Source: an uncultured Candidatus Saccharibacteria bacterium (GTDB lineage Bacteria; Patescibacteriota; Minisyncoccia; Phycocordibacterales; DATDWN01). Taken from it: a stretch of 64,000 nucleotides of DNA. The stretch lies in NCBI GenBank assembly GCA_964551495.1, contig CAZKCA010000002.1, positions 19,648 to 83,647 on the forward strand, written 5' to 3'. The notes below the pieces were generated by a model. That model ran no database searches, had not been told where the DNA came from, and saw only the letters and a program-made list of their open reading frames with translations. The translations under genes were made by a program, and so were the position numbers. Below are positions 40,769-57,238 of the stretch, one piece after another (the first letter of the stretch is position 1; every line of letters starts with the position of its first letter).

Positions 40769-40896
40769 AAATGAAATCTCGTTGAGGCACTGTATTTTTG
40801 GAGACTTCGCAAGCGCGACGGCGCGAGACCGAGCAAAATTTCAGCAGAAATTTATGCGTGCTCCAAAAATACAGTGCCGAGAAAGAGATTTCATTT
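40769..40896 (+). repeat. nested-palindromic repeat element, family 1, copy A (3' of dnaK)
   Basis: Outer IR AAATGAAATCTC/GAGATTTCATTT and inner IR TTTTGGAG/CTCCAAAA. Core is ACTTCGCAAGCGCGACGGCGCGAGACCGAGCAAAATTTCAGCAGAAATTTATGCGTG. Near-identical to copy C and to copy B in reverse orientation. Confidence 0.85.
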
Positions 40897-40915
40897 ATCA
40901 AAAATTTAGTAATCC

Positions 40916-42829
40916 TTACTTCTGATCTTCATTCTTTTTTTCTTCAAACTCCGCATCCCTTACATTCCCCTCTTTATTCTCTTCTGCTTTATTCTCAGAA
41001 GAATTCTCTTGAGTTTGCTTGTTTAGGATTTCACCGATTTTTGATATTTCAGATGAAAGTGTTTCTGTGGCTTTCTTTATAGTTTCCAAATCTTCACCTT
41101 CTTTAGCTTTCTTCAAATCCGCTACTTTTGTTTCTATAGAAGTTTTTAGATCTGCTGGTACTTTATCTCCTGCATCTTTCAAAGACTTCTCAGATGTGTA
41201 TATAAGCTGTTCAGCCAAGTTTTTGACCTCTGCCAAGTCTTTCTTCTTTTTATCTTCTGTAGCATGAGCTTCTGCATCTTTTTGCATTTTCTCAATATCT
41301 TCTTTAGACAAACCAGAACGAGCCTCTATCCTGATGGATTGTTCTTTTCCTGTCGCTTTATCTTTTGCTTTAACAGAAAGAATTCCATTTGCATCTACAT
41401 CAAAAGTAACTTCAACTTGTGGCATACCACGAGGAGCTGGCGGAATACCGTCTAGGATAAATCTTCCAAGAGATTTGTTATCACTTGCCATTGCTCTTTC
41501 ACCTTGGACTATATGAATCTCTACAGAAGTTTGATTATCTGCTGCAGTAGAGAACACTTGAGATTTAGAAGCTGGGATTGTTGTATTTCTTTCAATAAGA
41601 TGTGTTGCAACTCCTCCCATTGTTTCTATACCAAGAGAAAGTGGAATAACATCCAAAAGCAAAACATCTTTGACGTCCCCTGACATAATACCCCCTTGAA
41701 TAGCAGCGCCTAGAGCAACAACTTCATCTGGGTTAATAGACTTGTTTGGTTCTTTTCCAAAATATTCTTTAACTCTTTCTACCATTTTTGGCATTCTTGT
41801 TTGTCCTCCAACCAGTATAACTTCATTTATATCACCCACAGAGAAGCCAGAAGCCTCCATAGCTCTCTTTGTGATAGACATAGCCCTATCTATGAATTCT
41901 TCTGTAAGTTCCTCTAATTTAGCCCTTGTAAGCTTTATAAGAAGGTGTTTTGGTCCAGAAGCGTCAGATGTAATGAAAGGAATATTTACCTCTGTCTCAA
42001 CTGCAGAAGAAAGCTCAATCTTTGCCTTCTCAGCTGCTTCATCTAACCTTTGCAAAGCCAAGTTATCAGATCTTAAATCAATTCCATTTTCTTTTTTAAA
42101 TTCATCAGCAAGGTAGTTTATTATTTTCTGATCAATATCTTTTCCTCCCAAGTGACTGTCTCCATCTGTAGATTTTACTTTGATATCTCCACCAACTTCG
42201 TCCACATCAACCTCCAAAACAGAAACATCAAAAGTTCCACCTCCAAAGTCAAAAACGACTATCTTTTCATCTTTTCTGTTTTTATCAAATCCATACGCAA
42301 GAGCCGCTGCAGTAGGTTCGTTTATAATTCTTTTTACATCTAGGCCAGCGATGGCTCCGGCGTCTTTTGTGGCTTGTCTTTGAGAGTCGTTAAAGTATGC
42401 GGGTACTGTAATAATCGCTTCTGTAACTTTTTCACCGATTTTAGCTTCAACATCTGCTTTGATTTTAGAAATAATCATGGCAGAAATTTCTTCCGGAGTA
42501 TATTCCTTATCATTCATTTTTACTTTTACTCCACCATTTGAAGCTTTTATCATTTCGTAAGGCACAATACCTTTATCTTTTTGGACTGGAGCATCTTCAA
42601 ATTGATGTCCGATAAATCTTTTTATTCCAAAAATTGTGTTTTTTGGATTTGTTACTGCTTGCCTTTTAGCCAAAAGGCCTACAAGTCTTTCTCCTGTTTT
42701 TGATACAGCAACAATAGAAGGGGTAGTTCTAGCGCCTTCTGCATTTTCCAATATTTTTGGCTGTCCAACTTCCATAACTGCCACAGCCGAGTTTGTTGTT
42801 CCAAGATCAATTCCAATTATTTTAGACAT
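40916..42829 (-). CDS. dnaK: chaperone DnaK (Hsp70)
   Basis: [22 protein letters not shown] and [11 protein letters not shown] motifs; 637 aa. Confidence 0.95.
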
Positions 42830-42852
42830 AGTTTTTAGATTAAGTTAGGAAT

Positions 42853-42979
42853 CAATAAATCCTTGCCTTGCCATACCTTTTGTGGAGCACGCATAAATTT
42901 CTGCTGAAATTTTGCTCGGTCTCGTGCCGTCGCACTTGCGAAGTCTCCACAAAAGGTACGACTTCGACGTGATTTATTG
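42853..42979 (-). repeat. nested-palindromic repeat element, family 1, copy B (inverted, 24 bp upstream of the dnaK start codon)
   Basis: Its reverse complement matches copy A's core with 2 substitutions. Own outer IR CAATAAATC/GATTTATTG. Confidence 0.85.
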
Positions 42980-43005
42980 ATAACAAATTTTTAAGATCGA
43001 ATAAT

Positions 43006-43142
43006 TTAAGTAGATAAATTAAATAATTCAAAACATTCGCAGGTTTTTGGCTGAAATAAAAGCGAGAAGCGCCAGCCGGAGACACTGTCTGAGCGTAGCG
43101 AGTTTGGCGAGAGGCCAGCTTTGAGTGCTTTATTTCACAAAA
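43006..43142. repeat. nested-palindromic element, family 2, copy a
   Basis: Terminal IR AATTCAAAACATTCGCAGGTTTTTG / CAAAAACCGAGGACGTTTTGAATT. Inner IR TGAAATAAAAGC/GCTTTATTTCA. GC-rich core. Confidence 0.7.
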
Positions 43143-43169
43143 ACCGAGGACGTTTTGAATTGTTTACAT

Positions 43170-43490
43170 TTAGCTGATCTTATAGGATGGAGCGCGAGGT
43201 TTTGAACCTAAGAAAGATAGAATATTAAAATCAAAATATGGAGAAAGTATTTTATGATCTTTTTCTTTTTCTACCTCAAACTCAAAATTATCTTTAAGTG
43301 TCTCAAGACACAAAACTTCTTTATTTTCCAAACTTTCATCTAAGTAAACCACATTTAAAAGTCTAGCTTTTACTCTCCCGGATTCTTGGTACACACAAAA
43401 AGAGGCCCTGACAAGTCTTCCATCCTTGTCCCTCAAAACTTTTTCTATTAGATTGCCTCTAGGAGTTGTTATTTTCATAATAGTTAACAA
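43170..43490 (-). CDS. hypothetical protein
   Basis: 106-aa ORF with native codon usage. No family recognised. Confidence 0.4.
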   Translation of the reverse strand: MLTIMKITTPRGNLIEKVLRDKDGRLVRASFCVYQESGRVKARLLNVVYLDESLENKEVLCLETLKDNFEFEVEKEKDHKILSPYFDFNILSFLGSKPRAPSYKIS

Positions 43491-43570
43491 GTAAATTATA
43501 CCAAAGACTTCCCTATTGTGTAGTTGATTATAATATCAAAATGTGATATAATTAATAATGGAGGTCCGAA

Positions 43571-43876
43571 ATGGCTCTGAAAAAGAGATTGAAAGATATT
43601 GAGGCTTTACTTGCAATTTTAACACAAGGTTGGAGTGATCAAAAAATATTCCAAGAATCTATACCTCAATATTCAGCTCTTGATGATACTCACGAGTACA
43701 CATTAAACTACGGGTGGGCAGGTATTATTAACAACTTAGCAAAGTTACTAGGTTTTGAACCTTATATCAAAAAAGCTCATGAACCAACCATCACTTCAAG
43801 CAAATTAGATTCTCTAATAAGTGAAGCAGAATGTTTTATTGATTTTTTTGAGGAGAATACCAAAAGCGGCCAATAG
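43571..43876 (+). CDS. hypothetical protein
   Basis: 101-aa ORF with SD GGAGG 7 nt upstream and a hairpin downstream. Confidence 0.45.
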   Translation: MALKKRLKDIEALLAILTQGWSDQKIFQESIPQYSALDDTHEYTLNYGWAGIINNLAKLLGFEPYIKKAHEPTITSSKLDSLISEAECFIDFFEENTKSGQ

Positions 43877-43885
43877 GTCGCTTTT

Positions 43886-44527
43886 CTATTTCTTAAACTC
43901 CCCTACTTTTACCTTTGGAGGACGAATTATTTTATCATTTAGTTTGTAACCAAGACTTAAGACTTCCACTACCTTATGGTCGTCTTCTTTTTTATCTACT
44001 TCTACATTTTCTATGGCTTCGTCTCTATTTGGATCAAAAATCTCTCCTATTGGATTTATTTGAGATACTCCATGATTTACTAAAACATTTAAAAGTTGTG
44101 AGTGAATATACTCTACTCCCACACGCCAGTTTTTATCTACTTTTTCCCAAGCTTCTTTATTTTTAAAGGCAGACTCAAAAGAGTCTAATACTGGAATAAG
44201 TTCATTTACAATATCTTCTTTAGCAAATTTTATAAAATTATCTCGTTCTGAAGCGTCTTGTTTTCTAGCATTTATAAAGTCAGCTTTGTCTCTTTGCCAA
44301 TTGTTCAAAAGGTCAGCTTTTTCTTTTTCAAGCTCTTTTATGCGCTTTTTAAGCTTTGCCAGTTTTGCATTTGCATCAACAGAAGTAACTTCTGTGTTTT
44401 CTTCAAACACAACATCATCAGAGTCAATTTCTGTTTCTTCTATCTCATCTTGAGATATCTCTTCTTCTTTTTTTAGATCGTCGTTCATAGAAAGAATACT
44501 ACCAAAAGTTACTAAATTTTCAAACAA
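43886..44527 (-). CDS. grpE: nucleotide exchange factor GrpE
   Basis: Coiled-coil KLKKRIKELEKEKADLLNNWQRDKADFINARKQ followed by the GrpE beta-domain GEIFDPNRDEAI. Start codon uncertain: TTG at 44525-27 or ATG at about 44486-88. Confidence 0.85.
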   Translation of the reverse strand: MFENLVTFGSILSMNDDLKKEEEISQDEIEETEIDSDDVVFEENTEVTSVDANAKLAKLKKRIKELEKEKADLLNNWQRDKADFINARKQDASERDNFIKFAKEDIVNELIPVLDSFESAFKNKEAWEKVDKNWRVGVEYIHSQLLNVLVNHGVSQINPIGEIFDPNRDEAIENVEVDKKEDDHKVVEVLSLGYKLNDKIIRPPKVKVGEFKK

Positions 44528-44650
44528 TTAAATCTTATTGAGGTATGGTATTTTTGGAGACTTCGCAAGCGCGACGGCGCGAGACCGAGCAAAATTTCAG
44601 CAGAAATTTATGCGTGCTCCAAAAATACTATACTGAAAAAGAGATTTAAT
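44528..44650 (+). repeat. nested-palindromic repeat element, family 1, copy C (abuts the grpE 5' end)
   Basis: Core identical to copy A. Outer IR TTAAATCT/AGATTTAA. Confidence 0.85.
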
Positions 44651-44667
44651 GATAAATATAAACCAAA

Positions 44668-44692
44668 AATCTCCCGAAGGAGATTTTTTAAT
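44668..44692. terminator. bidirectional hairpin terminator
   Basis: AAAAATCTCC-CGAA-GGAGATTTTTT. Confidence 0.6.
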
Positions 44693-44728
44693 TAACGTTT
44701 TGACCACTGTGGAGCCTTATTGCCGAAG
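44693..44728 (-). pseudogene. duplicated, recoded 3'-terminal fragment of rpsI (encodes FGNKAPQWSKR-stop)
   Basis: Reverse-strand reading TTC GGC AAT AAG GCT CCA CAG TGG TCA AAA CGT TAA reproduces the last residues of S9 (KAPQWSKR) with different codons for SKR and the stop. It lies 81 bp downstream of the real rpsI stop and shares the 14-nt string CCACTGTGGAGCCT with the gene end. Confidence 0.5.
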
Positions 44729-44809
44729 CACTGAAGCAAAGCTTAGTACTCGACTGCGGAAGACTAACGTAATTTGAAATAATTACAGACTACCGAATAG
44801 ACAGTAAAA

Positions 44810-45208
44810 CTATCTCTTACTCCACTGTGGAGCCTTTCTTGCCTTCTTTAGACCGAATTTTCTTCTCTCTTTCATTCTTCCATCTCTCTTTAGAAAACCT
44901 TCTCCTTTTAGAGTTTTTCTAAAATCTGCATTAAATTTAACGATGGCTCTTGCTATACCGTGTCTTAGTGCCTCTGATTGTGAGTGAATACCCCCACCTA
45001 CTATTTTGGCTGTTATTTTAAATCTTTCATCTACTTTTGTAAGAGGCATTTTAGAGATAAGTTCCATCTCACTTGTAGGAAAATAGTCTTTTATATCTTT
45101 ATCATTTACTGAAATGGTTGTTTTTGAAGAAGGAGAAATTCTAACTCTGGCAACAGATGTCTTTCTTCTTCCAACGGCTCCTGTATATTTTGTATTTTTA
45201 TCTTCCAT
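44810..45208 (-). CDS. rpsI: ribosomal protein S9
   Basis: GGGIHSQSEALRHGIARAI...KAPQWSKR C-terminus. Confidence 0.9.
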   Translation of the reverse strand: MEDKNTKYTGAVGRRKTSVARVRISPSSKTTISVNDKDIKDYFPTSEMELISKMPLTKVDERFKITAKIVGGGIHSQSEALRHGIARAIVKFNADFRKTLKGEGFLKRDGRMKERRKFGLKKARKAPQWSKR

Positions 45209-45213
45209 AATAT

Positions 45214-45558
45214 TTATTCTGAAATCTTAAGGTTAAGGATCATTTTTGATCTTAGTTTGTTTTTAGGAAGCATCCCCCAAACAGCATTTTTAAAAATTTC
45301 ACTATATCCTTTCTTTTCTACAACCTGCTTCATTGTTGGTTGTTTCAACCCTCCTGGATATCCTGAGTATCTACTATATTTTTTTTGATCCATTTTCTTT
45401 TCGTCTATCAAAGCTTTTGAAGTGTTTTTTATTTCAACTGTGACATTAGGAATAGCATTCCTTTTAAAATCAGGATTATTTTTACCCATTAGATAAACCG
45501 CTGCTTGTGTAGCGATTCTTCCAACTCTTTTGTTTTCTGCATCTAATACGTATTTCAT
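45214..45558 (-). CDS. rplM: ribosomal protein L13
   Basis: RIATQAAVYLMGKNNPDF...GMLPKNKL are L13 signatures. Confidence 0.9.
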   Translation of the reverse strand: MKYVLDAENKRVGRIATQAAVYLMGKNNPDFKRNAIPNVTVEIKNTSKALIDEKKMDQKKYSRYSGYPGGLKQPTMKQVVEKKGYSEIFKNAVWGMLPKNKLRSKMILNLKISE

Positions 45559-45563
45559 ATCTT

Positions 45564-45911
45564 TTATACAAATTCTATTACTGCCATTTTACTTCCATCT
45601 GAAAGTCTCTGAGGAAGTTTAGTGATTCTAGTATAACCACCAACCCTTTCTGCATATTTAGGAGATATTTCTTTTATTATCTTTTTTGCACCTGCAGGAC
45701 CAATTTTGGCTGCCAAAAGTCTCATTGAAGTTAGATTATTTTTTCTTCCTTGAGTAACCATTTTTTCTACATAAGGTCTTAGTTCACGAGCCTTTGCATC
45801 TGTTGTCTTTATTTTGTTGTTTGTAACCAACGCCAAAGCTAAAGACTTTAGAAGTGCATTTCTAACTTTTCTTACTCTACCAAATTTTCTGTTTGCATTG
45901 TGGTGCCTCAT
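45564..45911 (-). CDS. rplQ: ribosomal protein L17
   Basis: MRHHNANRKFGRVRKVRNALLKSLALALV is the L17 N-terminus. Confidence 0.9.
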   Translation of the reverse strand: MRHHNANRKFGRVRKVRNALLKSLALALVTNNKIKTTDAKARELRPYVEKMVTQGRKNNLTSMRLLAAKIGPAGAKKIIKEISPKYAERVGGYTRITKLPQRLSDGSKMAVIEFV

Positions 45912-45920
45912 CTCTCTTTT

Positions 45921-46880
45921 TTATTTCAGTGTTATATTGAAAGCTTCTAGAACTGACTTGATTTCTGTAAGTCCTTTTGCTCCAAGACCTTCTATTTCTA
46001 GAATGTCTTTTTCTCTTTTTCTAGCCAATCCTCCTATTGTTCTTATATTGGCGTTAGAAAGAGCATTCAATGTTCTTGAAGAAAGATCTAGACTCTCAAT
46101 TCTTGTCTTCAAAACATCGTCGTCTACACTATCATTTTTTTCAGAAAAGTCCAAATCTTTTGATTCACTTGATGAAAGAATAACATCCTCCTCCTTAAAA
46201 CCTACAATCGCTTTAAGTTGATTTATCATTATTTCTATAGATCTTTCCAAAGCCTCTCTAGGAGTGATTGTTCCATCAGTTTCTATGAAAATTTTCAACC
46301 TATTGAAATCTGTTCTATCACCAACACGCATATTTTCAACTTCATAACTAACTCTTCTAACAGGAGTAAATATAGCATCCAAAGCTATACTTCCTATATC
46401 AACTCTGTTTTTTTGCAAAACATCCTTTGGAACAAAACCAAGTCCTGTTTCAGCTGTAATTTCCATATCTAATTCAGCATTTTTATCTGTAAGATTTGCG
46501 ATAACCAATTCAGGATTAAGTATTTCAACCCCTCCAGGTACTTTTATGTCTCCAGCTGTTACCTCTTTTACTCCTTTAACTTTTAGAGTTAATTTTTGAG
46601 ACTCATCTCCAACAAGTCTTATTCTTACTTTCTTCAAATTTAGAAGAATAGTTATGGCGTCTTCTTTAACACCAGATATTGTAGAAAACTCATGCTCTAC
46701 TCCTGAAATTTTAACAGAAGTTATAGCAGAACCCGGCAACGAAGAAAGAATTATTCTTCTAAGAGAATTACCTAAAGTGTTTCCGTAGCCAGGATAAAGA
46801 CCATCTATTTCATAGTGGCCACTGAAATTATCTTCTGATATTATTTGTGGTTTTGATGGTAATACTATTGAGTCAGACAT
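45921..46880 (-). CDS. rpoA: DNA-directed RNA polymerase alpha subunit
   Basis: GYGNTLGNSLRRIILSSLPGSAIT (alpha NTD) and the C-terminal domain LDLSSRTLNALSNANIRTIGGL. Confidence 0.9.
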   Translation of the reverse strand: MSDSIVLPSKPQIISEDNFSGHYEIDGLYPGYGNTLGNSLRRIILSSLPGSAITSVKISGVEHEFSTISGVKEDAITILLNLKKVRIRLVGDESQKLTLKVKGVKEVTAGDIKVPGGVEILNPELVIANLTDKNAELDMEITAETGLGFVPKDVLQKNRVDIGSIALDAIFTPVRRVSYEVENMRVGDRTDFNRLKIFIETDGTITPREALERSIEIMINQLKAIVGFKEEDVILSSSESKDLDFSEKNDSVDDDVLKTRIESLDLSSRTLNALSNANIRTIGGLARKREKDILEIEGLGAKGLTEIKSVLEAFNITLK

Positions 46881-46945
46881 AAATTTATTATTTTATTTAA
46901 ATTTAACTTGTAAATTATACACTATTTATCCAATAAAATCAATGA

Positions 46946-47548
46946 TTATCTACTATAAAACTCAATAACAGCATTTAAATCAAACATTACATCAGAACCA
47001 GCGAGCTGTGGACTACCTACTATCTCAGCAGTTTTCTTGTTTATATCAAATTTTATCCAAGAAGGAGTAGATACATTTTTTATAGTTTCATCTACTTTAG
47101 CAAAAAGAGGTTTGTTTATAGAAGCAGGTCTTATAGATATAACGTCTCCTGTTTTTATTTTTCTTGAAGGAATAGTTGTTCTTTTGTTGTTAACCATAAT
47201 ATGACCATGAGAAACCATTTGTCTAGCCCCTAGTCTTGTAGAAGAAAGACCTATCCTAGCAATAACATTATCTAATCTAGATTCAAGTATCCCAAAAAGA
47301 ATTTGTGCTGGATGATTACTTTTTTTAGACAAAGCCTCTTTAACATAGTTACGGAACTGTTTTTCTGAAACTGCATATGTAAATCTAGCTTTTTGTTTTT
47401 CATTAAGCTGAAGACCAAACTCAGATTTTGGCTTAGTCATTCTAACTTTTTTTCTTTCGCTTCTAAGCACGTACTTTTGTGTTTGAGTTTTCTCAAATAC
47501 AGGTGCTCCTAATCTTCTTGCTATTTTATATTTTGGACCTATTTTCAT
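46946..47548 (-). CDS. rpsD: ribosomal protein S4
   Basis: S4 domain RLDNVIARIGLSSTRLGARQMVSHGHIMVNNKRTTIPS. Confidence 0.9.
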   Translation of the reverse strand: MKIGPKYKIARRLGAPVFEKTQTQKYVLRSERKKVRMTKPKSEFGLQLNEKQKARFTYAVSEKQFRNYVKEALSKKSNHPAQILFGILESRLDNVIARIGLSSTRLGARQMVSHGHIMVNNKRTTIPSRKIKTGDVISIRPASINKPLFAKVDETIKNVSTPSWIKFDINKKTAEIVGSPQLAGSDVMFDLNAVIEFYSR

Positions 47549-47559
47549 AAATTATAAAA

Positions 47560-47994
47560 TTATACTCTTCTTGGTTTTTTAGGTTTTGGACCGTTATGAG
47601 GAACCGCTGTCATATCTTTTATAGAAGTTAGATTAACTCCTTTAGATATAAAACCTCTAATTCCTGATTCTCTCCCAGATCCTACTCCTTTTACAAAGAC
47701 AGCTACTTCCTTCATACCCATAGCAGAAGCCTTTGTTCCGATAATTTCCCCAACTTTGGCTGCAGCAAAAGGAGTTCCTTTTTTAGCACCTTTAAATCCT
47801 ATTGAACCAGATGAAGAAGTAGCTAAAACATTACCTTTATTGTCAGTTAAAACAATCTTAGTATTGTTATAAGTAGACTGAACAAAAAGAAGACCAGTAT
47901 CCGCCTTTCTTTTAGACACAGCAACAACTGAAGAAGGTTTTAATACCTCTCCTTCGCTTGTTCCTCCTGTAGTTACGATTCTTTTCTTTCCCAT
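47560..47994 (-). CDS. rpsK: ribosomal protein S11
   Basis: TTGGTSEGEVLKPSSVVAV... and the C-terminal PHNGPKPKKPRRV. Confidence 0.9.
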   Translation of the reverse strand: MGKKRIVTTGGTSEGEVLKPSSVVAVSKRKADTGLLFVQSTYNNTKIVLTDNKGNVLATSSSGSIGFKGAKKGTPFAAAKVGEIIGTKASAMGMKEVAVFVKGVGSGRESGIRGFISKGVNLTSIKDMTAVPHNGPKPKKPRRV

Positions 47995-48002
47995 ATTATT
48001 TA

Positions 48003-48383
48003 TTATTTCTTATCAGCCGCCTTTCTTCCAGTTCCCATAGTCTTTCTAACATTACCTCTACGAGTACGAGAATTTGTTTTTGTTCTTTGTCCTCTAGAAG
48101 GCAAACCTCTTTGGTGCCTAGAACCTCTATATGAACTAATATCTTTTAATCTTTTTATATTACCAGCCACCTCTCTTTTCAAATCACCTTCAATCTTGTG
48201 ATTTTCAACAATTTTCCTAATAGCATTTTCTTCGTCTATAGTCAGGTCTTTTGATTTCTTATCAAAAGGAACTTTAGCTTCTTTTAGTATTTTTTGAGCC
48301 AAAGGACGACCTATACCATAAAGGATAGTTAGGCCAATTTCAATTCTTTTTTCTTCTGGTATTGTTATTCCTAGTATACGCAT
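48003..48383 (-). CDS. rpsM: ribosomal protein S13 (start at internal Met; the longer ORF extension overlaps rpmJ)
   Basis: MRILGITIPEEKRIEIGLTILYGIGRPLAQKIL is the canonical S13 start. Confidence 0.9.
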   Translation of the reverse strand: MRILGITIPEEKRIEIGLTILYGIGRPLAQKILKEAKVPFDKKSKDLTIDEENAIRKIVENHKIEGDLKREVAGNIKRLKDISSYRGSRHQRGLPSRGQRTKTNSRTRRGNVRKTMGTGRKAADKK

Positions 48384-48387
48384 AATT

Positions 48388-48504: not shown

Positions 48505-48505
48505 T

Positions 48506-48727: not shown

Positions 48728-48791
48728 TACAATTTAATCAATGGGTTACATACTAGCAGAATAGAGCCTAGTTAGTCAAGTCTTTATTTGG

Positions 48792-50198
48792 CTAAATCTC
48801 TAGGGTATTTACAAGTTTGACCTTTTCTTCATTTTTAGGTACAGACATAAACCAAAAAGGTTTGATCTCTATAGTGGCTTCTTTTATGGCTGGATACCTT
48901 GATATAGCCTCCTTTACATCATTTTTTGATAAACCTGTTATTTCCGATACTAGAGAATTCTGGTCAAAAAGCCAGACTAATTGAGGTTGTCCTTCTAATT
49001 TAAAGCTTAAATTGCCTGTATTTTGTATATCAGAGATATTTCCTGTAAATGAAAAGTTGAGCTCATCCAAGTTAGAAATTTTAATATTCTGATCAGCAAT
49101 ATTTGGAGAAGTTGCCTCAATAATTTCTCTTGTAAGAGTAACTCTATCAAAAATAAATGCTGTTGCTGTGGCTTTTTTATTAATTATAGCTTTATCTCCT
49201 GATCCGCCCACTTGAGTCGGCGAAGAAAAAGAATAATTTACACTGTTTTTATACATCACAAAATTAGCAGGTATTTGACCTTCTATTTCAGAAGAAAGTA
49301 GATTTTTTAGTTCTTCTTCTAATTCTTTACTTGCTGTTCCAAGATTCTCTTCAGATACAACCCTCCTCTCTCCAACAAAACCACCTGTCATATCAGTTTT
49401 TGAGCGAGCATATACTTGCTCATATTTAGCAGTACCTTTAAAGCCAGGAACAGTAAAATCTTTAAGTCCTATGTTATATCTGTCCCCAGTCTGGTCAGCT
49501 TCTACTTGAGTATCAATACTTCCGGGAACTGTTTTACCATCTTTTACTGTTCTGGCGGGAACTGTTATTGCATTTGGGATCCTATAAACTAGACCTTCTG
49601 GTGTTTCAAATCTTGTAGTAGCAATGAGTCTTTGCGATTCGGCTGTGTTATTAAAAACAGTTATTGTTCCTTTAGCCTTAACACTGACATTTTCTGAACC
49701 AGAAGCGGAAACCTCTTTAGAGACCTCTTTAGAAACACTTACTATTTGAAAACCCAAAGTTGTTCCTACAGCATCCTTTCGTGCTGTAAAAGATGAATCC
49801 AAAGCCACAACCTGACTATGAGGAGTTATTGTTATAACAGCTTGTTTAAATAATGCTGAAATAGCAAATCCTATAATTAGGATAGCAACAATAACAGCAA
49901 CATACAGTATTTTTTTGCTTGGTTTTTTTACTTCATCTTCATATTCATAATGATAGGTGTTTTCTTTTGTTTCTGATTGTTTAGAAGGCTTAACAGGTGT
50001 GTTTACATCAACATCTTTTTTTATTGAAACTGGCCTAGAAAACTCCTGCTCATCATAATCATCTTTTGTGCTAACCCTAGAAACATCATTTGATATAGAA
50101 GATCTTCTAGATCTATTTGGTAACTCTATGTTTCGTATAGATCTTTTTGATGGCAAAACATCTTGAACTAGATTTTTTTTATTTGATTCGTTTTTCAT
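48792..50198 (-). CDS. hypothetical bitopic membrane protein (about 105-aa basic cytoplasmic N-terminus, one TM, about 340-aa extracytoplasmic domain)
   Basis: 468 aa with TM ILYVAVIVAILIIGFAISALF. Immediately downstream of the FtsA/PilM-like gene; possibly a PilN/O- or FtsQ-like partner, but no motif support. Confidence 0.4.
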   Translation of the reverse strand: MKNESNKKNLVQDVLPSKRSIRNIELPNRSRRSSISNDVSRVSTKDDYDEQEFSRPVSIKKDVDVNTPVKPSKQSETKENTYHYEYEDEVKKPSKKILYVAVIVAILIIGFAISALFKQAVITITPHSQVVALDSSFTARKDAVGTTLGFQIVSVSKEVSKEVSASGSENVSVKAKGTITVFNNTAESQRLIATTRFETPEGLVYRIPNAITVPARTVKDGKTVPGSIDTQVEADQTGDRYNIGLKDFTVPGFKGTAKYEQVYARSKTDMTGGFVGERRVVSEENLGTASKELEEELKNLLSSEIEGQIPANFVMYKNSVNYSFSSPTQVGGSGDKAIINKKATATAFIFDRVTLTREIIEATSPNIADQNIKISNLDELNFSFTGNISDIQNTGNLSFKLEGQPQLVWLFDQNSLVSEITGLSKNDVKEAISRYPAIKEATIEIKPFWFMSVPKNEEKVKLVNTLEI

Positions 50199-50244
50199 AT
50201 TTCTTATGAAATTTTAACTCATTATTTGCCAATTGAAAAGAAAA

Positions 50245-51465
50245 CTACCTGTGAATAGTGTACTTATGGAACAAAGACAGTATAGCAATAAATTCACTAT
50301 GTTTGGCATCTGATTTAAAACTGACTAATCTATTTAATAAATCCTTAGATAAACCTATCTTGTTTAAATTTTTTCTAAAACTTGCGGTACTATCACTTTT
50401 CGATAAATTAAAAAAATCCATATATATAGGAGCAACATCTTCTTCCGAAGTTATATATAGAGTTGTGGGCAAAAGCATTTCTGGTGATAATTTCATAAGT
50501 GAATCTTCTAAATATATGGCCCATTCTTTTTCTACATCAGAAAATATATCAACCATTCTTTCTGTCATATTGGTATCGGTTTTCTTTTTATTAAACATAT
50601 GCATAAAAGATTCTGCTATTTCAAAAGAAACACCAAAAACCTTGGCTATCTGTTTTATAATAAAATTTCTACCAATAGGAAAAGAAGATGTTGATACTAT
50701 TGTTCCATTTCTAACTAAAGCAAAACAAGTCATCTCTGAAGTTATATCCATTAAAATATAATTGATTGTTTTTGGATAAAGAAAACCTAAAACATTAAAT
50801 GAAACAAAAGGAAAAGTGTGTATATAAATATCATTATCGTCCAAATGTGTATGGGTTTTTATTATTTTTCTGACACTAGAAACCATCTGATCTAGAACGA
50901 GACTCATGTAAACACTTAATTCTAGATTTTTGGTTTTTTTGCCTATACTTTTTTCTACAAAATACCCGTTTACTTTTGTCCTAGTTATAGCTTTTTCTAC
51001 ATAAGAGTTATCTCCTTTATGGAAAAAATCATCAGATTCTGAAACTTCTTTTATAAAAACTTCTGATTCTTTTTCCAAAACACTTTTCAAAAAATTTTCA
51101 GTAATCAAAAATTCTTTTTCTTGGTTTATCTTTATTTCTTTTGTTTTAGATAAAAACCAAGGAGAAGAAAAAGAAACCAATACATTGTCTACTCTTTTGT
51201 TGTGTTTCTTTTTGTTAAAATACTGACTTGTAAAAGTTTTCTTGATTGACTCTACAACAACCCTGTTCAACATTTTTTCAAAATGGGAAATTATTGTTTC
51301 TATATCAGAATCTAAACCAATTGAAATAGGAAAAACAGTGTTGGTTAAAATATAAGGAGAGCTGTTACCTTTGTAAATAGCAGAAGCAACAGAAATGCTT
51401 CCATTACCTATATCTATAAGTAGGGATATTTCATCTTTTTTACTAAAAAGACTTTTAAGAAACAT
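50245..51465 (-). CDS. actin-fold ATPase of the FtsA/PilM family
   Basis: N-terminal phosphate-1 motif LLIDIGNGSISVASAI, matching the DIG motif of FtsA/PilM/MreB. 406 aa with no TM. Confidence 0.45.
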   Translation of the reverse strand: MFLKSLFSKKDEISLLIDIGNGSISVASAIYKGNSSPYILTNTVFPISIGLDSDIETIISHFEKMLNRVVVESIKKTFTSQYFNKKKHNKRVDNVLVSFSSPWFLSKTKEIKINQEKEFLITENFLKSVLEKESEVFIKEVSESDDFFHKGDNSYVEKAITRTKVNGYFVEKSIGKKTKNLELSVYMSLVLDQMVSSVRKIIKTHTHLDDNDIYIHTFPFVSFNVLGFLYPKTINYILMDITSEMTCFALVRNGTIVSTSSFPIGRNFIIKQIAKVFGVSFEIAESFMHMFNKKKTDTNMTERMVDIFSDVEKEWAIYLEDSLMKLSPEMLLPTTLYITSEEDVAPIYMDFFNLSKSDSTASFRKNLNKIGLSKDLLNRLVSFKSDAKHSEFIAILSLFHKYTIHR

Positions 51466-51469
51466 GACT

Positions 51470-53314
51470 TTATTGTAACACAGCTTTAATTCTTCTTACT
51501 CCTGTGGAAATCCCCTCCTCTTTGGAAATTTTAAATTTTCCCAAAACGCCCGTATTTTCTACATGTGGACCACCACAAAATTCTTTTGAATAAGCAGTAT
51601 CTATAGAATCTCCTATGAAATAAACGCTGACTTCATCTCCATAAGTATCATTGAAAAAATGTAGTGCTCCAGTTTTTTCAGCATCTTCTTTTTTCATAAC
51701 AACTCTATTTACGGGCAGATTTTCTTTTATTTTCTGATTTACAATTTCCTCTACTTTTTGTTTTTGTTCATCTGTCATTTTTTCAGGATGAGAAAAATCA
51801 AAACGAAGTCTTTCGGCTGTTATGTTGCTTCCTTTTTGTGAGACATGGTCACCCAAAACATCCCTAAGAGCTTGGTGGAGCAAATGTGTAGCTGTGTGGT
51901 ATTTTGTTTCCATTTCTCCGTGTCCACCCAGTCCCCCTTTGAATTTTTGTTCTGCCCCAGCACGAGAAAGCTCTTGATGCTTTTTGAATAAATCGTTAAA
52001 TTCGTTTTCTGCAATCAATATATTTTTCTTGAGTGCAATTTCTTTAGTTAATTCAGGAGGAAAACCATAGGTTTGATAAAGATCAAAAACAACTTCTCCT
52101 GGCAAAAATTTATTTTTTTCTAAATGTTCAGCTAAATCATAATGCTCACCATTTAAACTGTTTTTATTCTCTACAATAAAATCTACTGCCTTATTAAACT
52201 GAAGCAAACCTTTATTAAGAGTTTTATCAAACTTTTCTGATTCTTTATTTATTACATCAACAATCTCTTCTCTTTTTTCTTTTATATTTTGATAAACATT
52301 CCCATACACAGAAACAATAGAATCTACAATTTTTTCTATTTCTATTTTTTCTAATTTCCTATCTTTTGTATTAAATACAGCTCTTCTTATAAGTCTTCGC
52401 AAGATATACCCTTGATCTGTGTTACTTGGCAAAACTCCATCTGAAATCATAAATACCGAAGCTCTCATGTGATCAGAAATAATTCTCTGAGATTTTAAAT
52501 TATCTGATATCTCTTTTGTAGTTTCCATTATCGGCTCAAACAAATCTGTATCGAAAATATTATCTCTACCTTGCATCACAGCAACAACTCTTTCAAAACC
52601 AGAACCAGTATCTACATTTTTATTTTCCAATTTTCCAATAACCTTTCCGTCTTTTTTGACATACTCCATAAAAACATCATTCCAGATCTCAACAACTCTT
52701 TGTTCATCATCTGCTTTTAGGTACTCTTCCAAAGTCATACCCTCTGTAAGTTTTCCTGTAAGATCATAAAACATTTCTGTATCTGGACCACAAGGACCAT
52801 TGTCTCCCGGAGACCACCAGTTTTTATCTGCTGGCCTAAAATAAATTCTTTCTCCTTCTATATTATTTTTTTCAAAAATTTCTTTCCAGATTTTGTAAGA
52901 CTCTTCATCTCTTGGAGCATTTTCATCCCCTTCAAAGCAAGTAACATAAAGCCTTCTAGGATCAAGCTCTAGACCTTCTTCTTTTGAAGTTAGAAACTCA
53001 AAACTCCATTCTATGGCCTCTTTTTTGAAATAATCCCCCAAAGACCAGTTTCCCATCATCTCAAAGAAAGTAGCGTGAGTATTGTCTCCTATTTCGTCTA
53101 TATCCCCCGTCCTAACACACTTTTGAATATTAGCCAGACGAGTTCCTTTTGGATGTTTTTCACCTAAAAGATATGGGGCTAGAGGTTGCATACCGGCAGT
53201 AGTAAAAAGGACAGAAGGATCATTTTCTGGTACAAGTGAATATGAAGGAATTATGGCATGTCCTCTATTTTCGAAAAATTTTAAAAACCGCTTTCGTATT
53301 TCTTCAGATTTCAT
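51470..53314 (-). CDS. alaS: alanyl-tRNA synthetase, short form (catalytic + editing domains, no C-Ala domain)
   Basis: FTTAGMQPLAPY...FEMMGNWSLGDYFK class II core; editing-domain HxxxH HTATHLLHQALRDVLGDHVSQKGS and CGGPH. Only 614 aa. Confidence 0.9.
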   Translation of the reverse strand: MKSEEIRKRFLKFFENRGHAIIPSYSLVPENDPSVLFTTAGMQPLAPYLLGEKHPKGTRLANIQKCVRTGDIDEIGDNTHATFFEMMGNWSLGDYFKKEAIEWSFEFLTSKEEGLELDPRRLYVTCFEGDENAPRDEESYKIWKEIFEKNNIEGERIYFRPADKNWWSPGDNGPCGPDTEMFYDLTGKLTEGMTLEEYLKADDEQRVVEIWNDVFMEYVKKDGKVIGKLENKNVDTGSGFERVVAVMQGRDNIFDTDLFEPIMETTKEISDNLKSQRIISDHMRASVFMISDGVLPSNTDQGYILRRLIRRAVFNTKDRKLEKIEIEKIVDSIVSVYGNVYQNIKEKREEIVDVINKESEKFDKTLNKGLLQFNKAVDFIVENKNSLNGEHYDLAEHLEKNKFLPGEVVFDLYQTYGFPPELTKEIALKKNILIAENEFNDLFKKHQELSRAGAEQKFKGGLGGHGEMETKYHTATHLLHQALRDVLGDHVSQKGSNITAERLRFDFSHPEKMTDEQKQKVEEIVNQKIKENLPVNRVVMKKEDAEKTGALHFFNDTYGDEVSVYFIGDSIDTAYSKEFCGGPHVENTGVLGKFKISKEEGISTGVRRIKAVLQ

Positions 53315-53369
53315 ATATAGATTATATTTACATAAAATAAGCCTTTTTGGAAGATTATCGTGTACAAAA

Positions 53370-53491
53370 AAACAAACTCGTTGAGTTGATATGATTTTGG
53401 AGACTTCGCAGTCGGGTAGACGAGACCGAGCGATTTTTCAGCAGAAAAATACGCGTGCTCCAAAATTATATCAATGAAAAAGAGTTTGTTT
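53370..53491 (+). repeat. nested-palindromic repeat element, family 1, copy D (between alaS 5' end and the EamA gene)
   Basis: Outer IR AAACAAACTCGTTGAGTTGATATGA / TATATCAATGAAAAAGAGTTTGTTT; inner TTTTGGAG/CTCCAAAA. Conserved core segment ...GAGACCGAGCGATTTTTCAGCAGAAAAATACGCGTG. Confidence 0.8.
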
Positions 53492-53498
53492 AAAAATT

Positions 53499-53921
53499 TT
53501 ATTTCAAAATAGTCAAAAAGGCTCCAGTTGCAATCATAGCAACTCCGACTATTTTATAAACAGTAAACCCTTCTGACAAAAATAGTCCAGCCAAAATTGC
53601 TACAAAAACAATACTTAACCTATCTATAGCAGAAACAGTTGTTGCATCCCCATTTTTTAGAGCAAAAAAATAGAAAAGCCAAGATAAAGCTCCTGCAACT
53701 CCAGAAAAAACAATAAACAAAAACTCTCTTGACCCAAAAAAGTCTGTAGAAAAACCATTAAATTTTTTAAGTGAAAAAGAAACCAATATTAGAAACAAAG
53801 CCATTACAACAGAACGAATTGTTGTCGCCAAAGTTGAATCAATATCTTTTAATCCTATTTTTCCAAAAATAGCAACAAGAGAAGCAAAAACAGCTGATAA
53901 AATTGCAAATAATATCCACAT
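53499..53921 (-). CDS. EamA-domain (DMT superfamily) small transporter, single 4-TM repeat
   Basis: 140 aa, 4 TM helices. Conserved FGKIGLK and ALKNGDATTVSAIDRLS of EamA. Confidence 0.6.
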   Translation of the reverse strand: MWILFAILSAVFASLVAIFGKIGLKDIDSTLATTIRSVVMALFLILVSFSLKKFNGFSTDFFGSREFLFIVFSGVAGALSWLFYFFALKNGDATTVSAIDRLSIVFVAILAGLFLSEGFTVYKIVGVAMIATGAFLTILK

Positions 53922-53926
53922 AAGTT

Positions 53927-54532
53927 TTAAATATATTTTTTAAGTATTTGAAAATCTTTTAATAAACTTTCTTTGTTCTTACCATTATACAGTGCTACAG
54001 CTGGATGATACAAAGGAACAATAGAAACTTTTCCATAACCCCACTGACCTACGAACTCTTTTCCATGAGCTTCTGTTATTGAATATTTCTCTTTTATTCC
54101 AAACTTTTCTATTATATAAACCATAGAAAATCTACCTAGAGTAGCTATTACTTTTGGTTGTATTATGTCTATCTGTCTATCTAAAAAAGAGGAATAGAGT
54201 CTTATTTCTTGGGGGGACGGATCTCTATTTTCTGGGGGTCTGTCTTTAACAACATTTGTTATATAAACATCTTCCCTTTTCAAATTTATAGAAGATAGCA
54301 TTTCATCTAAAAATTTTCCTGACCTTCCACAAAAAGGTCTTGCTGTTTCAGCTTCATTTTTTCCCGGAGCCTCGCCTATAAACATTACACTTGCAAAATG
54401 ACTTCCTTCTCCTACTACAGGAAAATATTTATTTTTTATCCTATATTCATACAAAGGAGATTCTTTAAAAGAAAGAAGTTCATCTCTAATTTCTTTCATC
54501 TTTTCAAATCTTTCTTCCTTTGAAAGTGACAT
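53927..54532 (-). CDS. uracil-DNA glycosylase, family 4
   Basis: MFIGEAPG (GEAPG motif), FCGRSG, and C-terminal PLYHPAVALYN, which is HPSPLN-like. Confidence 0.8.
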   Translation of the reverse strand: MSLSKEERFEKMKEIRDELLSFKESPLYEYRIKNKYFPVVGEGSHFASVMFIGEAPGKNEAETARPFCGRSGKFLDEMLSSINLKREDVYITNVVKDRPPENRDPSPQEIRLYSSFLDRQIDIIQPKVIATLGRFSMVYIIEKFGIKEKYSITEAHGKEFVGQWGYGKVSIVPLYHPAVALYNGKNKESLLKDFQILKKYI

Positions 54533-54533
54533 T

Positions 54534-55151
54534 TTATTTTTTGTTTCTATTTACCCACCAATTACTCTTTTGACTTTTCTTGTCATACCACCAATCATTT
54601 GAATCTGTCTTCATTATTTCCTTGGCTATTGTTTTAGCGGTATCTGTTTTTAATCTTTTTATTGCAGAATCAATCCAAGTTAACGCTCTTGTATTACCAG
54701 TATCAATTTCTTCTTTCAAAGAAAGTATCCACTCCAAGTTATCTGCATCTTTTACAAGAATTGATTCTGGACTTTTTCTTTCTTCATACTCTTCAATTAA
54801 ATTATAAAATGTTTCTCCAAAAGGCACAGAGGCGGCAATATCTTTATGGGCTTCGTGTTCTTTTCTTTCTACATATTTTTGATGAACATAATTTAAGTCA
54901 GATATTCTTGTTTCTGAAATATCATGAAGAAGTGCCATCTGCAACACCTTAGAAATATCCACTTTACCATCCATAAGCGCTAGAACGTAAGCAATAAAAC
55001 ATGCTCTATTTACATGTTCTGCAACAGTCTGATCTCCTGTGCCCAAAAAATGAAAACCGCTTCTTGGTGTTTTAGCCAAAATTCCTACTTCAAAAAGGAA
55101 ATTCGTTATTTTCTTTATGTCCCCCTTTCCTTTTTTCATATTTTTTTTCAT
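54534..55151 (-). CDS. HD-domain phosphohydrolase (YfbR-like 5'-deoxynucleotidase family)
   Basis: H...HD...D arrangement: VAEHVNRACFIAYV, LLHDISETRISDL, KDADNLEW. Confidence 0.7.
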   Translation of the reverse strand: MKKNMKKGKGDIKKITNFLFEVGILAKTPRSGFHFLGTGDQTVAEHVNRACFIAYVLALMDGKVDISKVLQMALLHDISETRISDLNYVHQKYVERKEHEAHKDIAASVPFGETFYNLIEEYEERKSPESILVKDADNLEWILSLKEEIDTGNTRALTWIDSAIKRLKTDTAKTIAKEIMKTDSNDWWYDKKSQKSNWWVNRNKK

Positions 55152-55155
55152 ATTT

Positions 55156-56001
55156 TTATAACAAACTTATCTCCATTAAAACTTTGTTTATTTTTTCTTT
55201 CGGAACACCTATATCTTCCAATAGTTCTGTATTTTCTTCTATTGTTTTACACAACACAATACCTTTATCTAATAGTTCTTTTTTCTCTCTTCCATCCAAA
55301 GTTCCTAAGCAGGTTAAAGGATGAAGTTTTGCCTTGACTATCATATCCCGCAAATTTCCTTCTGGTGGATAATTCCAACCAATAAGTTTAAGTCCTCCTT
55401 GGCAGGAGCCGTATTCAATAGCTGTGGTAGTAAATTTTGTATTTGTGACAATCCAACCTTCATCCAATTTTCTTTCTCTTCCACCATAGTTAAAACTGAC
55501 ACTATTTAAATCATCAAAACGAGCTTTTACATACAAAGCCACTTTTAAATCTGATTTTACGCCAAGTTGATTGTGGAACTTTGCCTCCACCATTATTAGT
55601 TTTTCTTCATTCCAAGCAACAACATCTATCTCATGTTCAACACAATGACCTTTAACAGTCTGACCTGTTAAAGTCTCATACCCCATTCTATTAAAAATCT
55701 CCGCAACAAATTTCTCAAACGGAAAACCTGAGGGTCCAAGTTCCATTATGGCCCTTTTCAAAGAATACTTTAAAGCAACTGGTTGATCTTTTTTATACAA
55801 AAGCTCAAAAGCATGATTATAAATATCATGAGTAGTCATTCCATCTTTTATATAGTATGAAGTCTGAGAAACAATATCTAAAACCTCTTCTTCTGTTGCT
55901 CCAGATTTTCTTAAAGAATCTTCTAATTTTGAATTATCAAATAGTTCTTTTGTTCCATCTGCCTTTAATATGTATTTTGGTTCTGTATTCATAAAAACCA
56001 T
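55156..56001 (-). CDS. ATP-cone domain fused to Mrr-type PD-(D/E)xK restriction-endonuclease-like domain
   Basis: N-terminal KYILKADGTKELFDNSKLEDSLRKSGATEEEV matches the ATP-cone pattern of NrdR/RNR. Central HEIDVVAWNEEKLIMVEAKFH has D...E-x-K spacing, as in the Mrr catalytic domain. Confidence 0.5.
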   Translation of the reverse strand: MVFMNTEPKYILKADGTKELFDNSKLEDSLRKSGATEEEVLDIVSQTSYYIKDGMTTHDIYNHAFELLYKKDQPVALKYSLKRAIMELGPSGFPFEKFVAEIFNRMGYETLTGQTVKGHCVEHEIDVVAWNEEKLIMVEAKFHNQLGVKSDLKVALYVKARFDDLNSVSFNYGGRERKLDEGWIVTNTKFTTTAIEYGSCQGGLKLIGWNYPPEGNLRDMIVKAKLHPLTCLGTLDGREKKELLDKGIVLCKTIEENTELLEDIGVPKEKINKVLMEISLL

Positions 56002-56029
56002 TATCTCATAAAGGTATTGCTATTTCCAA

Positions 56030-57238
56030 TTAAATTATAGTTTCCATTATTCCTCCTCCGAGACATTTTTCTCCTTGGTAGAATACAGCGGACTGACCTT
56101 TTGCTACTCCATTTTGGGGTTTTTCAAAAGAGATTTTATAACCTAATTCTAACTTTTCTACCTTACAATTTTGTTTTTCTTGTCTGTATCTTATCCTAAC
56201 CTGACAATTTAAAGGAAATTCTGGCTCTACCCCATCTATAAAATGAATATCTTTTATAAAAATCTCTTTTGTATTGAAAACTAAATCTAGCTGATTTTCT
56301 TTGTCTGCTACAGTTATAGTATTTTTTTCTAGGTCTTTTGACACAACAAAAAAACTTGGGTCATTTGGAGTCTTTTTGGTAATAGTAAATCCATGTCTTT
56401 GACCTATGGTATAAAACAGTGCCCCATCGTGAATCCCAACAACCTCTCCTTTGGAATTTAAAACATCTCCTTTTTTAGTTTCAATGAAGTGTTCAAGAAA
56501 ATCTTTCATATCTACTTTTCCAATAAAACAAAGTCCTTGGCTATCTTTTTTTGTGGCCGTAGGAAGACTAAACTTCTCTGCCAGTTTTCTAACTTCTGGT
56601 TTTGTTAAGTGTCCTACAGGGAAAAGTGTTTTTGAAAGCTGTTCTTGGTTTAAAGTGTAAAGAAAATAACTTTGATCTTTATTTTTATCATTTGATTCAT
56701 GAAGTTCAAACCTATAGTTTGATAAATCTTGTTGAGACAAGAGGTTTCTGAAACATTGCGAGCGCGACGGCGCGAACACGAGGAATTTTTCAGCAGAAAA
56801 ATATCCGTTTTCAGAAACCTCTTGAGGAGAAAGAGATTTATCAAATACCAAATTCTGAGCATAGTGTCCTGTGGCTATAAAATCAGCCCCCATCTCTTTG
56901 GCTTTATCTAGAAAAACTCCAAATTTTACATACTTATTACAAAAAACATCTGGATTTGGAGTCCTACCGGCTTTGTATTCAGAAATCATATAGTCAACTA
57001 CTTCTTTTTTATATTCCTTCTCACAATCAATAGTTAAAAATGGGACATCCAAAATGGCACAAACTCTCATAGCACTTCTCCTTTCTTCTTTCCAGTCACA
57101 AGGTAAAAACTCTGGATGCCAAACTTTTAGAAAAACCCCCATGACGTCAAAACCGGCTTCTTTAAGCAAAGCCAAAGAGACAGAAGAGTCCACTCCGCCT
57201 GATAGACCAACAAAAACCTTTGGCTTTCTATTTTCCAT
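56030..57238 (-). CDS. mnmA: tRNA 2-thiouridine(34) synthase MnmA, carrying a 40-aa in-frame insertion
   Basis: PP-loop VGLSGGVDSSV, catalytic-Cys regions, KDQSYFLYTL and the C-terminal GQSAVFYQGEKCLGGGII. Between GHYAQ and KDQSYFL there are about 58 aa where E. coli MnmA has about 20. Confidence 0.9.
   Translation of the reverse strand: MENRKPKVFVGLSGGVDSSVSLALLKEAGFDVMGVFLKVWHPEFLPCDWKEERRSAMRVCAILDVPFLTIDCEKEYKKEVVDYMISEYKAGRTPNPDVFCNKYVKFGVFLDKAKEMGADFIATGHYAQNLVFDKSLSPQEVSENGYFSAEKFLVFAPSRSQCFRNLLSQQDLSNYRFELHESNDKNKDQSYFLYTLNQEQLSKTLFPVGHLTKPEVRKLAEKFSLPTATKKDSQGLCFIGKVDMKDFLEHFIETKKGDVLNSKGEVVGIHDGALFYTIGQRHGFTITKKTPNDPSFFVVSKDLEKNTITVADKENQLDLVFNTKEIFIKDIHFIDGVEPEFPLNCQVRIRYRQEKQNCKVEKLELGYKISFEKPQNGVAKGQSAVFYQGEKCLGGGIMETII
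56722..56843 (+). repeat. nested-palindromic repeat element, family 1, copy E, inserted in frame inside mnmA
   Basis: Outer IR GATAAATC/GATTTATC and inner IR AGGTTTCTGAAA/TTTCAGAAACCT. Core GCGAGCGCGACGGCGCGAACACGAGGAATTTTTCAGCAGAAAAATA. The element is about 120 bp and translates (minus strand) to DKSLSPQEVSENGYFSAEKFLVFAPSRSQCFRNLLSQQDLS within MnmA. Confidence 0.8.

Follow-up and report, generated by a model that had tools for sequence, protein, structure and literature searches.

The stretch analysed here is a 64 kb segment of contig CAZKCA010000002.1 (positions 19,648 to 83,647; 32.5% GC), hereafter called the window. It carries housekeeping genes (dnaK, dnaJ, grpE, rpoA, alaS, cysS, gltX, mnmA and genes for ribosomal proteins), and the nearest proteins to their products come from metagenome-assembled genomes (MAGs) of Paceibacterota/Patescibacteria. 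Among these genes, and in one case inside one of them, lie five copies (A to E) of a repeat of 122–128 nucleotides (nt), each of which folds into a long stem with a branched, conserved centre (Table 1). We describe this repeat and the family to which it belongs, using for comparison loci from other Patescibacteria MAGs, labelled L014–L126.

Table 1. Repeat copies, their host or flanking genes and a neighbouring hairpin element, in window coordinates.
Feature	Position	Strand	Setting and remarks
Copy A	40769..40896	+	Between dnaK stop codon and a conserved intrinsic terminator; antisense to dnaK; 90 bits
Copy A, parts of the fold	Outer stem 40769-40780/40885-40896; P1 40786-40805/40858-40878; P2 40807-40832; P3 40833-40857		Internal loop GUUGA/GAGAAA
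Copy B	42853..42979	-	Inverted relative to the other four; 24 nt upstream of dnaK start codon, sense to dnaK; 88.3 bits
Copy C	44528..44650	+	Between the terminator after rpsI (S9) and grpE; 88.6 bits
Copy D	53370..53491	+	Between an EamA-like gene and alaS start; divergent P2 hairpin; 72.5 bits
Copy E	56722..56843	+	Inside mnmA, antisense to the gene; 88 bits
dnaK	40916..42829	-	Copies A and B on its two sides, in inverted orientation
mnmA	56030..57238	-	tRNA 2-thiouridine synthase; host of copy E; 402 amino acids
Second long-hairpin element	43020..43166		Unrelated; beside copy B; 28-nt arms with 79% complementarity; 91-nt branched centre; fold z -5.1

A sequence-only reading of the window had proposed these five copies, and all of them were located at the positions given: with a covariance model derived from 114 copies, the 64 kb yield these five matches (72–90 bits, E values of 1e-19 to 1e-24) and no others. 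Aligned over ~125 nt, the five have a mean column identity of 77%, and each folds far better than its own shuffles (z of -6 to -9). A 26-nt core pattern matched four of the five, compared to none expected in shuffles, and the confinement of all five to 25% of the window has a chance probability of ~0.016 under uniform placement. The long identity between copies A and C, earlier put at about 75 bp, extends over 81 nt (40792-40872 = 44548-44628), with 90% identity over 125 nt. Copy B had been said to differ at two positions; in the centre it departs from A and C by one compensatory pair (GCGC/GCGC to GUGC/GCAC), and its stem has one extra base. The core ascribed to every copy is indeed shared as a centre, except that copy D is without the GCGCGACGGCGCGA motif and has a different P2 hairpin (UCG-GGUAGA-CGA). 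Both short open reading frames (ORFs) attributed to the repeat, 40798-41082 (+) and 42852-43085 (-), are present, and the first of them continues, in antisense, into dnaK at its 3' end. What the earlier reading had not recorded is that copy E is not intergenic: it lies in frame within the mnmA ORF. Segmental duplication was ruled out as the origin of the window copies because the similarity between them ends at the element borders.

A branched fold maintained by compensatory change

To place these copies in a wider family, we scanned species-representative genomes with a pattern of 19 specified bases, which returned at least 118 loci, ~115 of them with paired arms. Among the loci listed, all but about three chance matches are in Patescibacteria MAGs, with labels that comprise Nomura-, Taylor-, Yonath-, Zambryski- and Moranbacteria, Paceibacterota, Minisyncoccia and bins labelled Saccharibacteria by a pipeline. 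The wider search suggested by the sequence-only reading thus adds at least 115 copies from other genomes. Covariance model R1, run on 729 kb of pattern loci, gave 117 matches, of which ~18 lie outside the pattern and have variant P3 loops and junctions; copies retrieved via protein homology were much more diverged (43–56 bits). Judging from these matches, the family probably spans about a hundred or more ultra-small (Patescibacteria) genomes, mainly of Paceibacteria/Parcubacteria lineages. Copies form local clusters, with six in 5 kb (L068, 1500–6650), three in 1.3 kb (L018, 5560–6880), three in 4 kb (L086, 940–4770) and, in the window, five in 16 kb (40769–56843). Rfam gave no matches at gathering thresholds and, at E<10, only weak look-alikes of microRNA hairpins.

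All five window copies share one architecture, in which an outer stem is followed by an internal loop (GUUGAG opposite GAGAAA), a near-perfect stem of 16–20 bp and a three-way junction at the apex. The sequence of stem P1 is hypervariable, differing from copy to copy, yet it remains paired. The conserved parts of the junction are J12 (U), P2 (UGC-[GA]-GCGC-loop-GCGC-[GA]-GCA), J23 (CGA) and P3, which ends in a C-AGCA-G loop, and the consensus centre reads GAC-U-UGC GA GCGC GACG GCGC GA GCA-CGA-GGAAUUUUUC AGCA GAAAAAU A UCC-GUGC. The tandem G·A motif of P2 has G-C pairs on both sides and recurs in the outer internal loops (GCGAG/CGAGC or GUUGAG/CGAGAAA). In other genomes the unit is ~90–195 nt long (median ~117 nt), and its flanking arms have no sequence in common between genomes and are complementary within each copy. 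In minimum free energy folds, the stem that encloses the centre has a median of ~31 bp and a maximum of 59 bp. The centre itself is a GC-rich island (~50% GC in a 32% GC genome); its apparent conservation is inflated by the search pattern, which fixes 19 of its ~65 positions.

Covariation was measured for one structure, specified by us, on the 114 copies, with shuffles and slid alignments as controls; related copies within this set are not independent of each other. Standard pairs occupy 87.1% of pair cells, compared to 67.5% after shuffling and 34–54% in the slid controls, and 833 cells are changed on both sides, compared to 267 in shuffles. Compensatory double changes occur in 29 of the 36 pairs, and the covariation score is 0.488 against 0.145 for shuffles and at most 0.16 for the slid controls. 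The signal is found in all five helices (outer P1, inner P1, P2a, P2b and P3). At L126, for example, an AU-rich P3 has been wholly swapped for GC pairs with the C-AGCA-G loop retained. Compensation is also seen at the same locus between relatives: copy E and its counterpart in L120 (MnmA 88% identical) are set apart by G-C to A-U in P1 and GCGC/GCGC to GCUC/GAGC in P2, and copy A differs from that in L122 by GCGC/GCGC to GUGC/GCAC. The fold of the repeat is maintained by compensatory change, and the selection on structure that had been suggested from the stems of five copies is much more strongly indicated with 114.

Turnover, strand asymmetry and copies within genes

Close relatives differ through gain, loss, partial deletion and homogenisation of copies. 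A comparison of occupied and empty sites, proposed with the original description of the repeat, found that occupancy differs at sites A–E. Site A is filled in the window and in L122 (DnaK 94% identical) and holds no family copy in L123 (DnaK 91%); sites B, C and D are filled in the window and hold none in L122 and L123 (B), L123 (C) or L120 and L121 (D). Site E is filled in the window and in L120, L121 has a remodelled remnant, and in L119 exactly 90 nt are missing from between two TTGAG repeats, with the outer hairpin still in place. The short hairpin of L119 was considered as a pre-existing target and is better explained by that 90-nt deletion; insertion into pre-existing hairpins was also rejected at sites A and C, where L123 has no empty hairpin. 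A metagenome scan for closer relatives with a dnaK 32-mer returned no additional contig.

Within one genome, the centre and ~10–12 bp of the inner stem are nearly identical between copies and the outer stem is copy-specific, as seen for window copies A and C, for L040/L042/L069 and for L126a/b. Either partial gene conversion seeded by the conserved centre or mobility of the inner unit would explain this homogeneity.

The stems are also asymmetrical between strands. We aligned each 5' arm to the reverse complement of its 3' arm under a strand-symmetric score and counted mismatches as read on the element strand, which gave 81 G·T against 19 A·C and 103 A·G/G·A against 8 C·T/T·C over all copies. 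A stricter count that leaves out the bases adjoining the centre and dereplicates similar arms gave 32 G·T against 14 A·C (p=0.011) or, by copy, 20 against 6 in a sign test (p=0.009); two small orthologous groups had too few mismatches for a strand comparison. The G·T excess is present in every gene-context class (sense, antisense, mixed and in-ORF copies). With respect to GC skew, 65 elements lie on the C-rich strand and 39 on the other, and between co-directional genes 34 copies are antisense and 19 sense. Mutation bias was rejected as the cause: given that the elements favour the C-rich strand and that roughly one in two is antisense to genes, it would produce A·C, whereas G·T prevails in all classes. 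On these counts, one single strand of the element, as RNA or single-stranded DNA (ssDNA), seems to be what folds.

Most copies (~80%) are intergenic and most fill short gaps between genes. Counting matches listed and the window, however, 24 of ~122 copies (~20%) lie in long ORFs that read straight through them, in 11 gene families. Four frames on both strands are used, and the two commonest readings are LGSATARARGIFQQKNIR (sense) and GYFSAEKFLVLAPSRSQ (antisense, the window type). Copies occupy the same site in TsaD in seven genomes (sense) and in PheT in six (antisense), and the pattern set contributes one locus each for MnmA, MiaA, ArgS, Dus, UvrD, a GlmM-like mutase, RseP, ComEC and 3-methyladenine glycosylase, in various orientations. 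A word-indexed protein search with element-encoded peptides gave only seven candidates, and an exhaustive search only unrelated repetitive proteins. As a rough estimate, six of the 11 distinct host genes act on tRNA (TsaD, PheT, MnmA, MiaA, ArgS and Dus), a share that may reflect the gene content of tiny genomes or the tolerance of loops.

Copy E illustrates how such copies are accommodated. It is read in frame as DKSLSPQEVSENGYFSAEKFLVFAPSRSQCFRNLLSQQDLS and adds 41 codons (56720-56842), so that the window MnmA has 402 residues compared to ~360 in relatives without the insert. A family copy occupies this loop in antisense in the window, L120 and L126 and in sense in L125, and L126 (P0071) has a second in-frame copy elsewhere in mnmA. 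In the AlphaFold model of the window protein, which is confident overall (predicted local distance difference test score, pLDDT, of 83; predicted template modelling score, pTM, of 0.82), residues 139–169 score below 50; they correspond to the insert and are predicted to form a coil between strands 127–133 and 175–181. The insert is thus predicted to lie in a disordered loop, where the fold would tolerate it. Read directly, the consensus centre is open in five of the six frames. The host genes stay open across their in-gene copies, which would accordingly be read through as ~30–45 extra residues in a tolerant loop.

The same MnmA loop, between ATGHYA and FELHES..KDQSYF (window residues 128–175), holds inserts of ~40 residues of several kinds in many Paceibacteria, and one protein (P0111) has four inserts in MnmA.

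Nature of the family

We lean, with slightly better than even confidence, towards a non-autonomous, selfish repeat family specific to Patescibacteria, similar to the palindromic elements of Rickettsia and dependent for its persistence on the fold of one strand. Selection would act on the fold of a particular element strand, either an RNA or an ssDNA intermediate, and a trans-acting factor would recognise that fold when copies are made or converted. The element would persist because it is nearly harmless, its centre being open in most frames, and the hairpin would keep the length and frame of an insert intact even if it were flipped.

Some of what is known of the Rickettsia palindromic elements (RPEs) is reportedly due to descriptions by Ogata et al. 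in 2000 and 2002. RPEs are palindromic repeats of ~100–150 bp, numerous in each small AT-rich genome and found in intergenic DNA as well as in frame in unrelated housekeeping genes; the host protein stays intact with the insert in a tolerant place, and there is no known transposase or clear mechanism (described in part in PMC10969869). The Patescibacteria repeat resembles RPE-1 to RPE-10 in length, copy number, in-frame share of copies and tolerance of the site, a likeness of behaviour: the five window copies and the median of 117 nt elsewhere fall in the same size range, and up to six copies occur per 5 kb. It differs in having hosts in another phylum, a conserved three-way-junction centre with copy-specific arms, a spread over roughly a hundred or more species, same-site copies in TsaD and PheT, and strand-specific stem mismatches. 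By analogy, then, the repeat can be classed with the RPEs on behaviour. [quoted passage not shown]

MITEs are marked by terminal inverted repeats that are conserved, by duplication of the target site (TA for Correia elements) and by a parent insertion sequence (IS). The Correia/NEMIS MITEs of Neisseria are similar to the present repeat in being short and non-autonomous, in giving hairpin RNAs when co-transcribed and in their strain-variable presence, as at sites A–E, where presence differs between relatives. Correia elements also undergo inversion in place and RNase III cleavage (PMC10969869); inversion in place was seen in Patescibacteria for a sister hairpin element (L122 vs L123). Unlike MITEs, the repeat showed neither conserved terminal repeats nor a target duplication, and no parent IS was found in the scanned window ORFs or beside the clusters. 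Repetitive extragenic palindromes (REPs), for their part, are 20–40 bp long, extragenic and headed by GTAG/CGTC. REPs, their hairpin-forming pairs (REPINs) and the associated transposases (RAYTs) offer a parallel in palindromes that fold as single strands and form populations within genomes, and strand specificity would follow if an HUH enzyme acted on hairpins of ssDNA. The Patescibacteria repeat, by contrast, is ~120 nt long with a branched centre and no conserved head, and is often in genes; no RAYT was seen in the scanned ORFs of the window and cluster neighbours, a search that did not extend to whole genomes. The repeat therefore falls outside the strict definitions of MITE, REP/REPIN and intrinsic terminator, because it has no conserved termini, target duplication, T-run, promoter excess (as scanned at copies A–C) or fixed neighbour. 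Small hairpin repeats (RHEs) that invade compact AT-rich genomes are also known from sponge mitochondria, in unrelated hosts, and the part of that account consulted reports no conserved branched centre (PMC2800124).

If the preferred reading of a selfish, RPE-like family is right, 'selfish DNA inside proteins', hitherto a peculiarity of Rickettsia, extends to a second lineage of reduced bacteria, one unrelated to the first. In the very small genomes of Patescibacteria the repeat fills intergenic gaps and lengthens essential enzymes (TsaD, PheT, MnmA, MiaA and ArgS), and it accounts for length variation, odd disordered protein inserts and spurious ORF calls. The combination of a free stalk, a conserved branched centre and strand-specific wobble makes it a system for asking which ssDNA intermediate or RNA is needed, and the covariance model can be used to mask or map the repeat in the thousands of available genomes. 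The review cited above has no mention of bacteria of the candidate phyla radiation (CPR), and our literature search, which mostly did not cover subscription papers, turned up no account of elements of this kind in CPR, Patescibacteria or Parcubacteria.

Several observations weigh against a selfish mobile family. Terminal inverted repeats are not conserved between copies, the arms being complementary only within each copy, and the best flanking direct repeats are close to or barely above the shuffled-flank control, so that the target-site duplications looked for at the suggestion of the earlier reading gave no signal. No transposase, integrase or reverse transcriptase was found among the 20 window ORFs (chiefly the larger ones) scanned with Pfam, and the same scan beside the clusters in L068, L018 and L086 gave housekeeping functions only. 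Searches of IMG/VR, INPHARED (GenBank phages) and PLSDB for carriage by phages or plasmids gave no match. Gene conversion alone, with no transposition, could produce the homogeneity within genomes. The strand asymmetry is also present in copies antisense to host genes, and some source of the single strand that would be needed has to be supposed. Finally, for same-site TsaD and PheT copies the flanking coding DNA is only ~65% identical between genomes and the centres 0.86–0.93, a contrast inflated by the 19 of ~65 positions that the search pattern fixes; centres better kept than their coding flanks resemble the outcome of purifying selection for a function more than they resemble junk.

This last observation leads to the main alternative, which we consider possible but unlikely: a dispersed, host-functional structured RNA module selected locus by locus, with the three-way junction and its tandem G·A motif as the active part and the long stem presenting it. 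Such a role would fit the conservation of junction, tandem G·A motif and loop across many genomes while all helices covary, the restriction of tolerated G·U and G·A mismatches to the element strand, the GC-rich centre, the compensatory changes at orthologous loci and the retention of same-site TsaD and PheT copies, with their better-conserved centres, across deep divergence. Known structured RNAs of Rfam and hammerhead-type three-way-junction ribozymes are similar in having conserved junction and loop residues, tandem G·A helix extension, covarying helices, multiple copies and no fixed context. The Patescibacteria junction (U / CGA) differs from that of the hammerhead, however, and the Rfam search, as noted, found nothing but microRNA look-alikes even at E<10. 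Other results also argue against this alternative: for about half of the copies the only transcription in evidence runs in the opposite direction, promoter-like sites show no excess at window copies A–C (the region scanned), and no gene neighbourhood is conserved among pattern loci or cluster neighbours. The copies are dispensable, since sites A–D are without a family copy in comparable relatives and site E shows a deletion in L119 and a decayed remnant in L121. Centres in one genome evolve in concert, as repeats do, and TsaD mRNA would pay a price for a self-cleaving RNA in its sense strand. A tentative and, to us, improbable form of this idea is that the junction represents a new class of Patescibacteria functional RNA, catalytic or protein-recruiting and carried on a sequence-free double-stranded stalk, which would have colonised intergenic DNA and even the genes of essential tRNA-related enzymes. 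Selection would then act on the strand of the element itself, irrespective of how the host gene is oriented, which would imply that this strand is transcribed independently of that gene.

A site acting at the DNA level, as a cruciform or protein-binding palindrome in chromosome organisation, replication or recombination, appears decidedly improbable. Long near-perfect palindromes do occur, copies cluster locally (in the window, near a GC-skew switch), orientation is modestly biased with respect to GC skew and a related element has been inverted in situ between two genomes. A cruciform would nevertheless involve both strands equally, and the strand-specific G·T and G·A excess makes a symmetrical one unlikely; on the original alternative of DNA cruciform or RNA, the mismatches favour one folded single strand. 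In addition, the orientation bias is weak, the stems outside the centre have no conserved duplex sequence for a protein to read, and the sites are dispensable between relatives.

We give very little credence to a transcription terminator or stabiliser of mRNA ends that has spread as a repeat. The filling of short intergenic gaps by most copies would suit this role, as would the location of copy A in the dnaK 3' region and of copy D at the position of the terminator hairpin found upstream of alaS in relatives. Runs of T are not enriched on either strand, however (at least six T in the 10 nt after the hairpin in 10–12% of copies, compared to a background of 7%), canonical terminators already adjoin copies A and C, copy B is just upstream of the dnaK start and copy C between a terminator and grpE, and about a fifth of copies are inside ORFs. 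The least credible explanation is a protein-coding module conserved by selection on its peptide: although LGSATARARGIFQQKNIR and GYFSAEKFLVLAPSRSQ recur in host proteins, most copies lie between genes, those in ORFs use at least four frames across both strands, it is the nucleotide sequence that is conserved, with base-pair covariation, and the insert is predicted to be disordered.

Neighbouring hairpin elements and local context

The repeat is accompanied by other elements of the same general build. The second long-hairpin element of the window (Table 1) lies outside this family. At the B site, upstream of dnaK, L122 (~700–860) and L123 (~9795–9955) have a 'family 2' hairpin with a different centre of ~95 nt, whose inner stem (TGTATTTTTGGA) is that of window copies A and C; this element is inverted between L122 and L123 with the flank collinear. 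Taken together, 'family 2' and the element at 43020-43166 indicate that several families on one plan are present in these genomes. A third hairpin type was observed at L123 (~9615–9790).

Some features of the surrounding window were also recorded. Between 30000 and 34000 the GC skew changes sign (cumulative maximum) and genes converge, with plus-strand genes up to 31233 and minus-strand genes from 34018, so that the region looks like a replication terminus; all five copies sit 9–25 kb to one side of this switch. Between the rpsI (S9) stop and copy C, ~170 nt (44660–44830) are absent from L123; they contain, on the minus strand, a canonical terminator (44688-44665), and they repeat the CCACAGTGG motif seen at the end of rpsI. 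Lastly, the gene upstream of alaS encodes an EamA-like membrane protein in the window (53499-53921) and cytidylate kinase in L120 and L121, indicating that local gene order has changed beside copy D.

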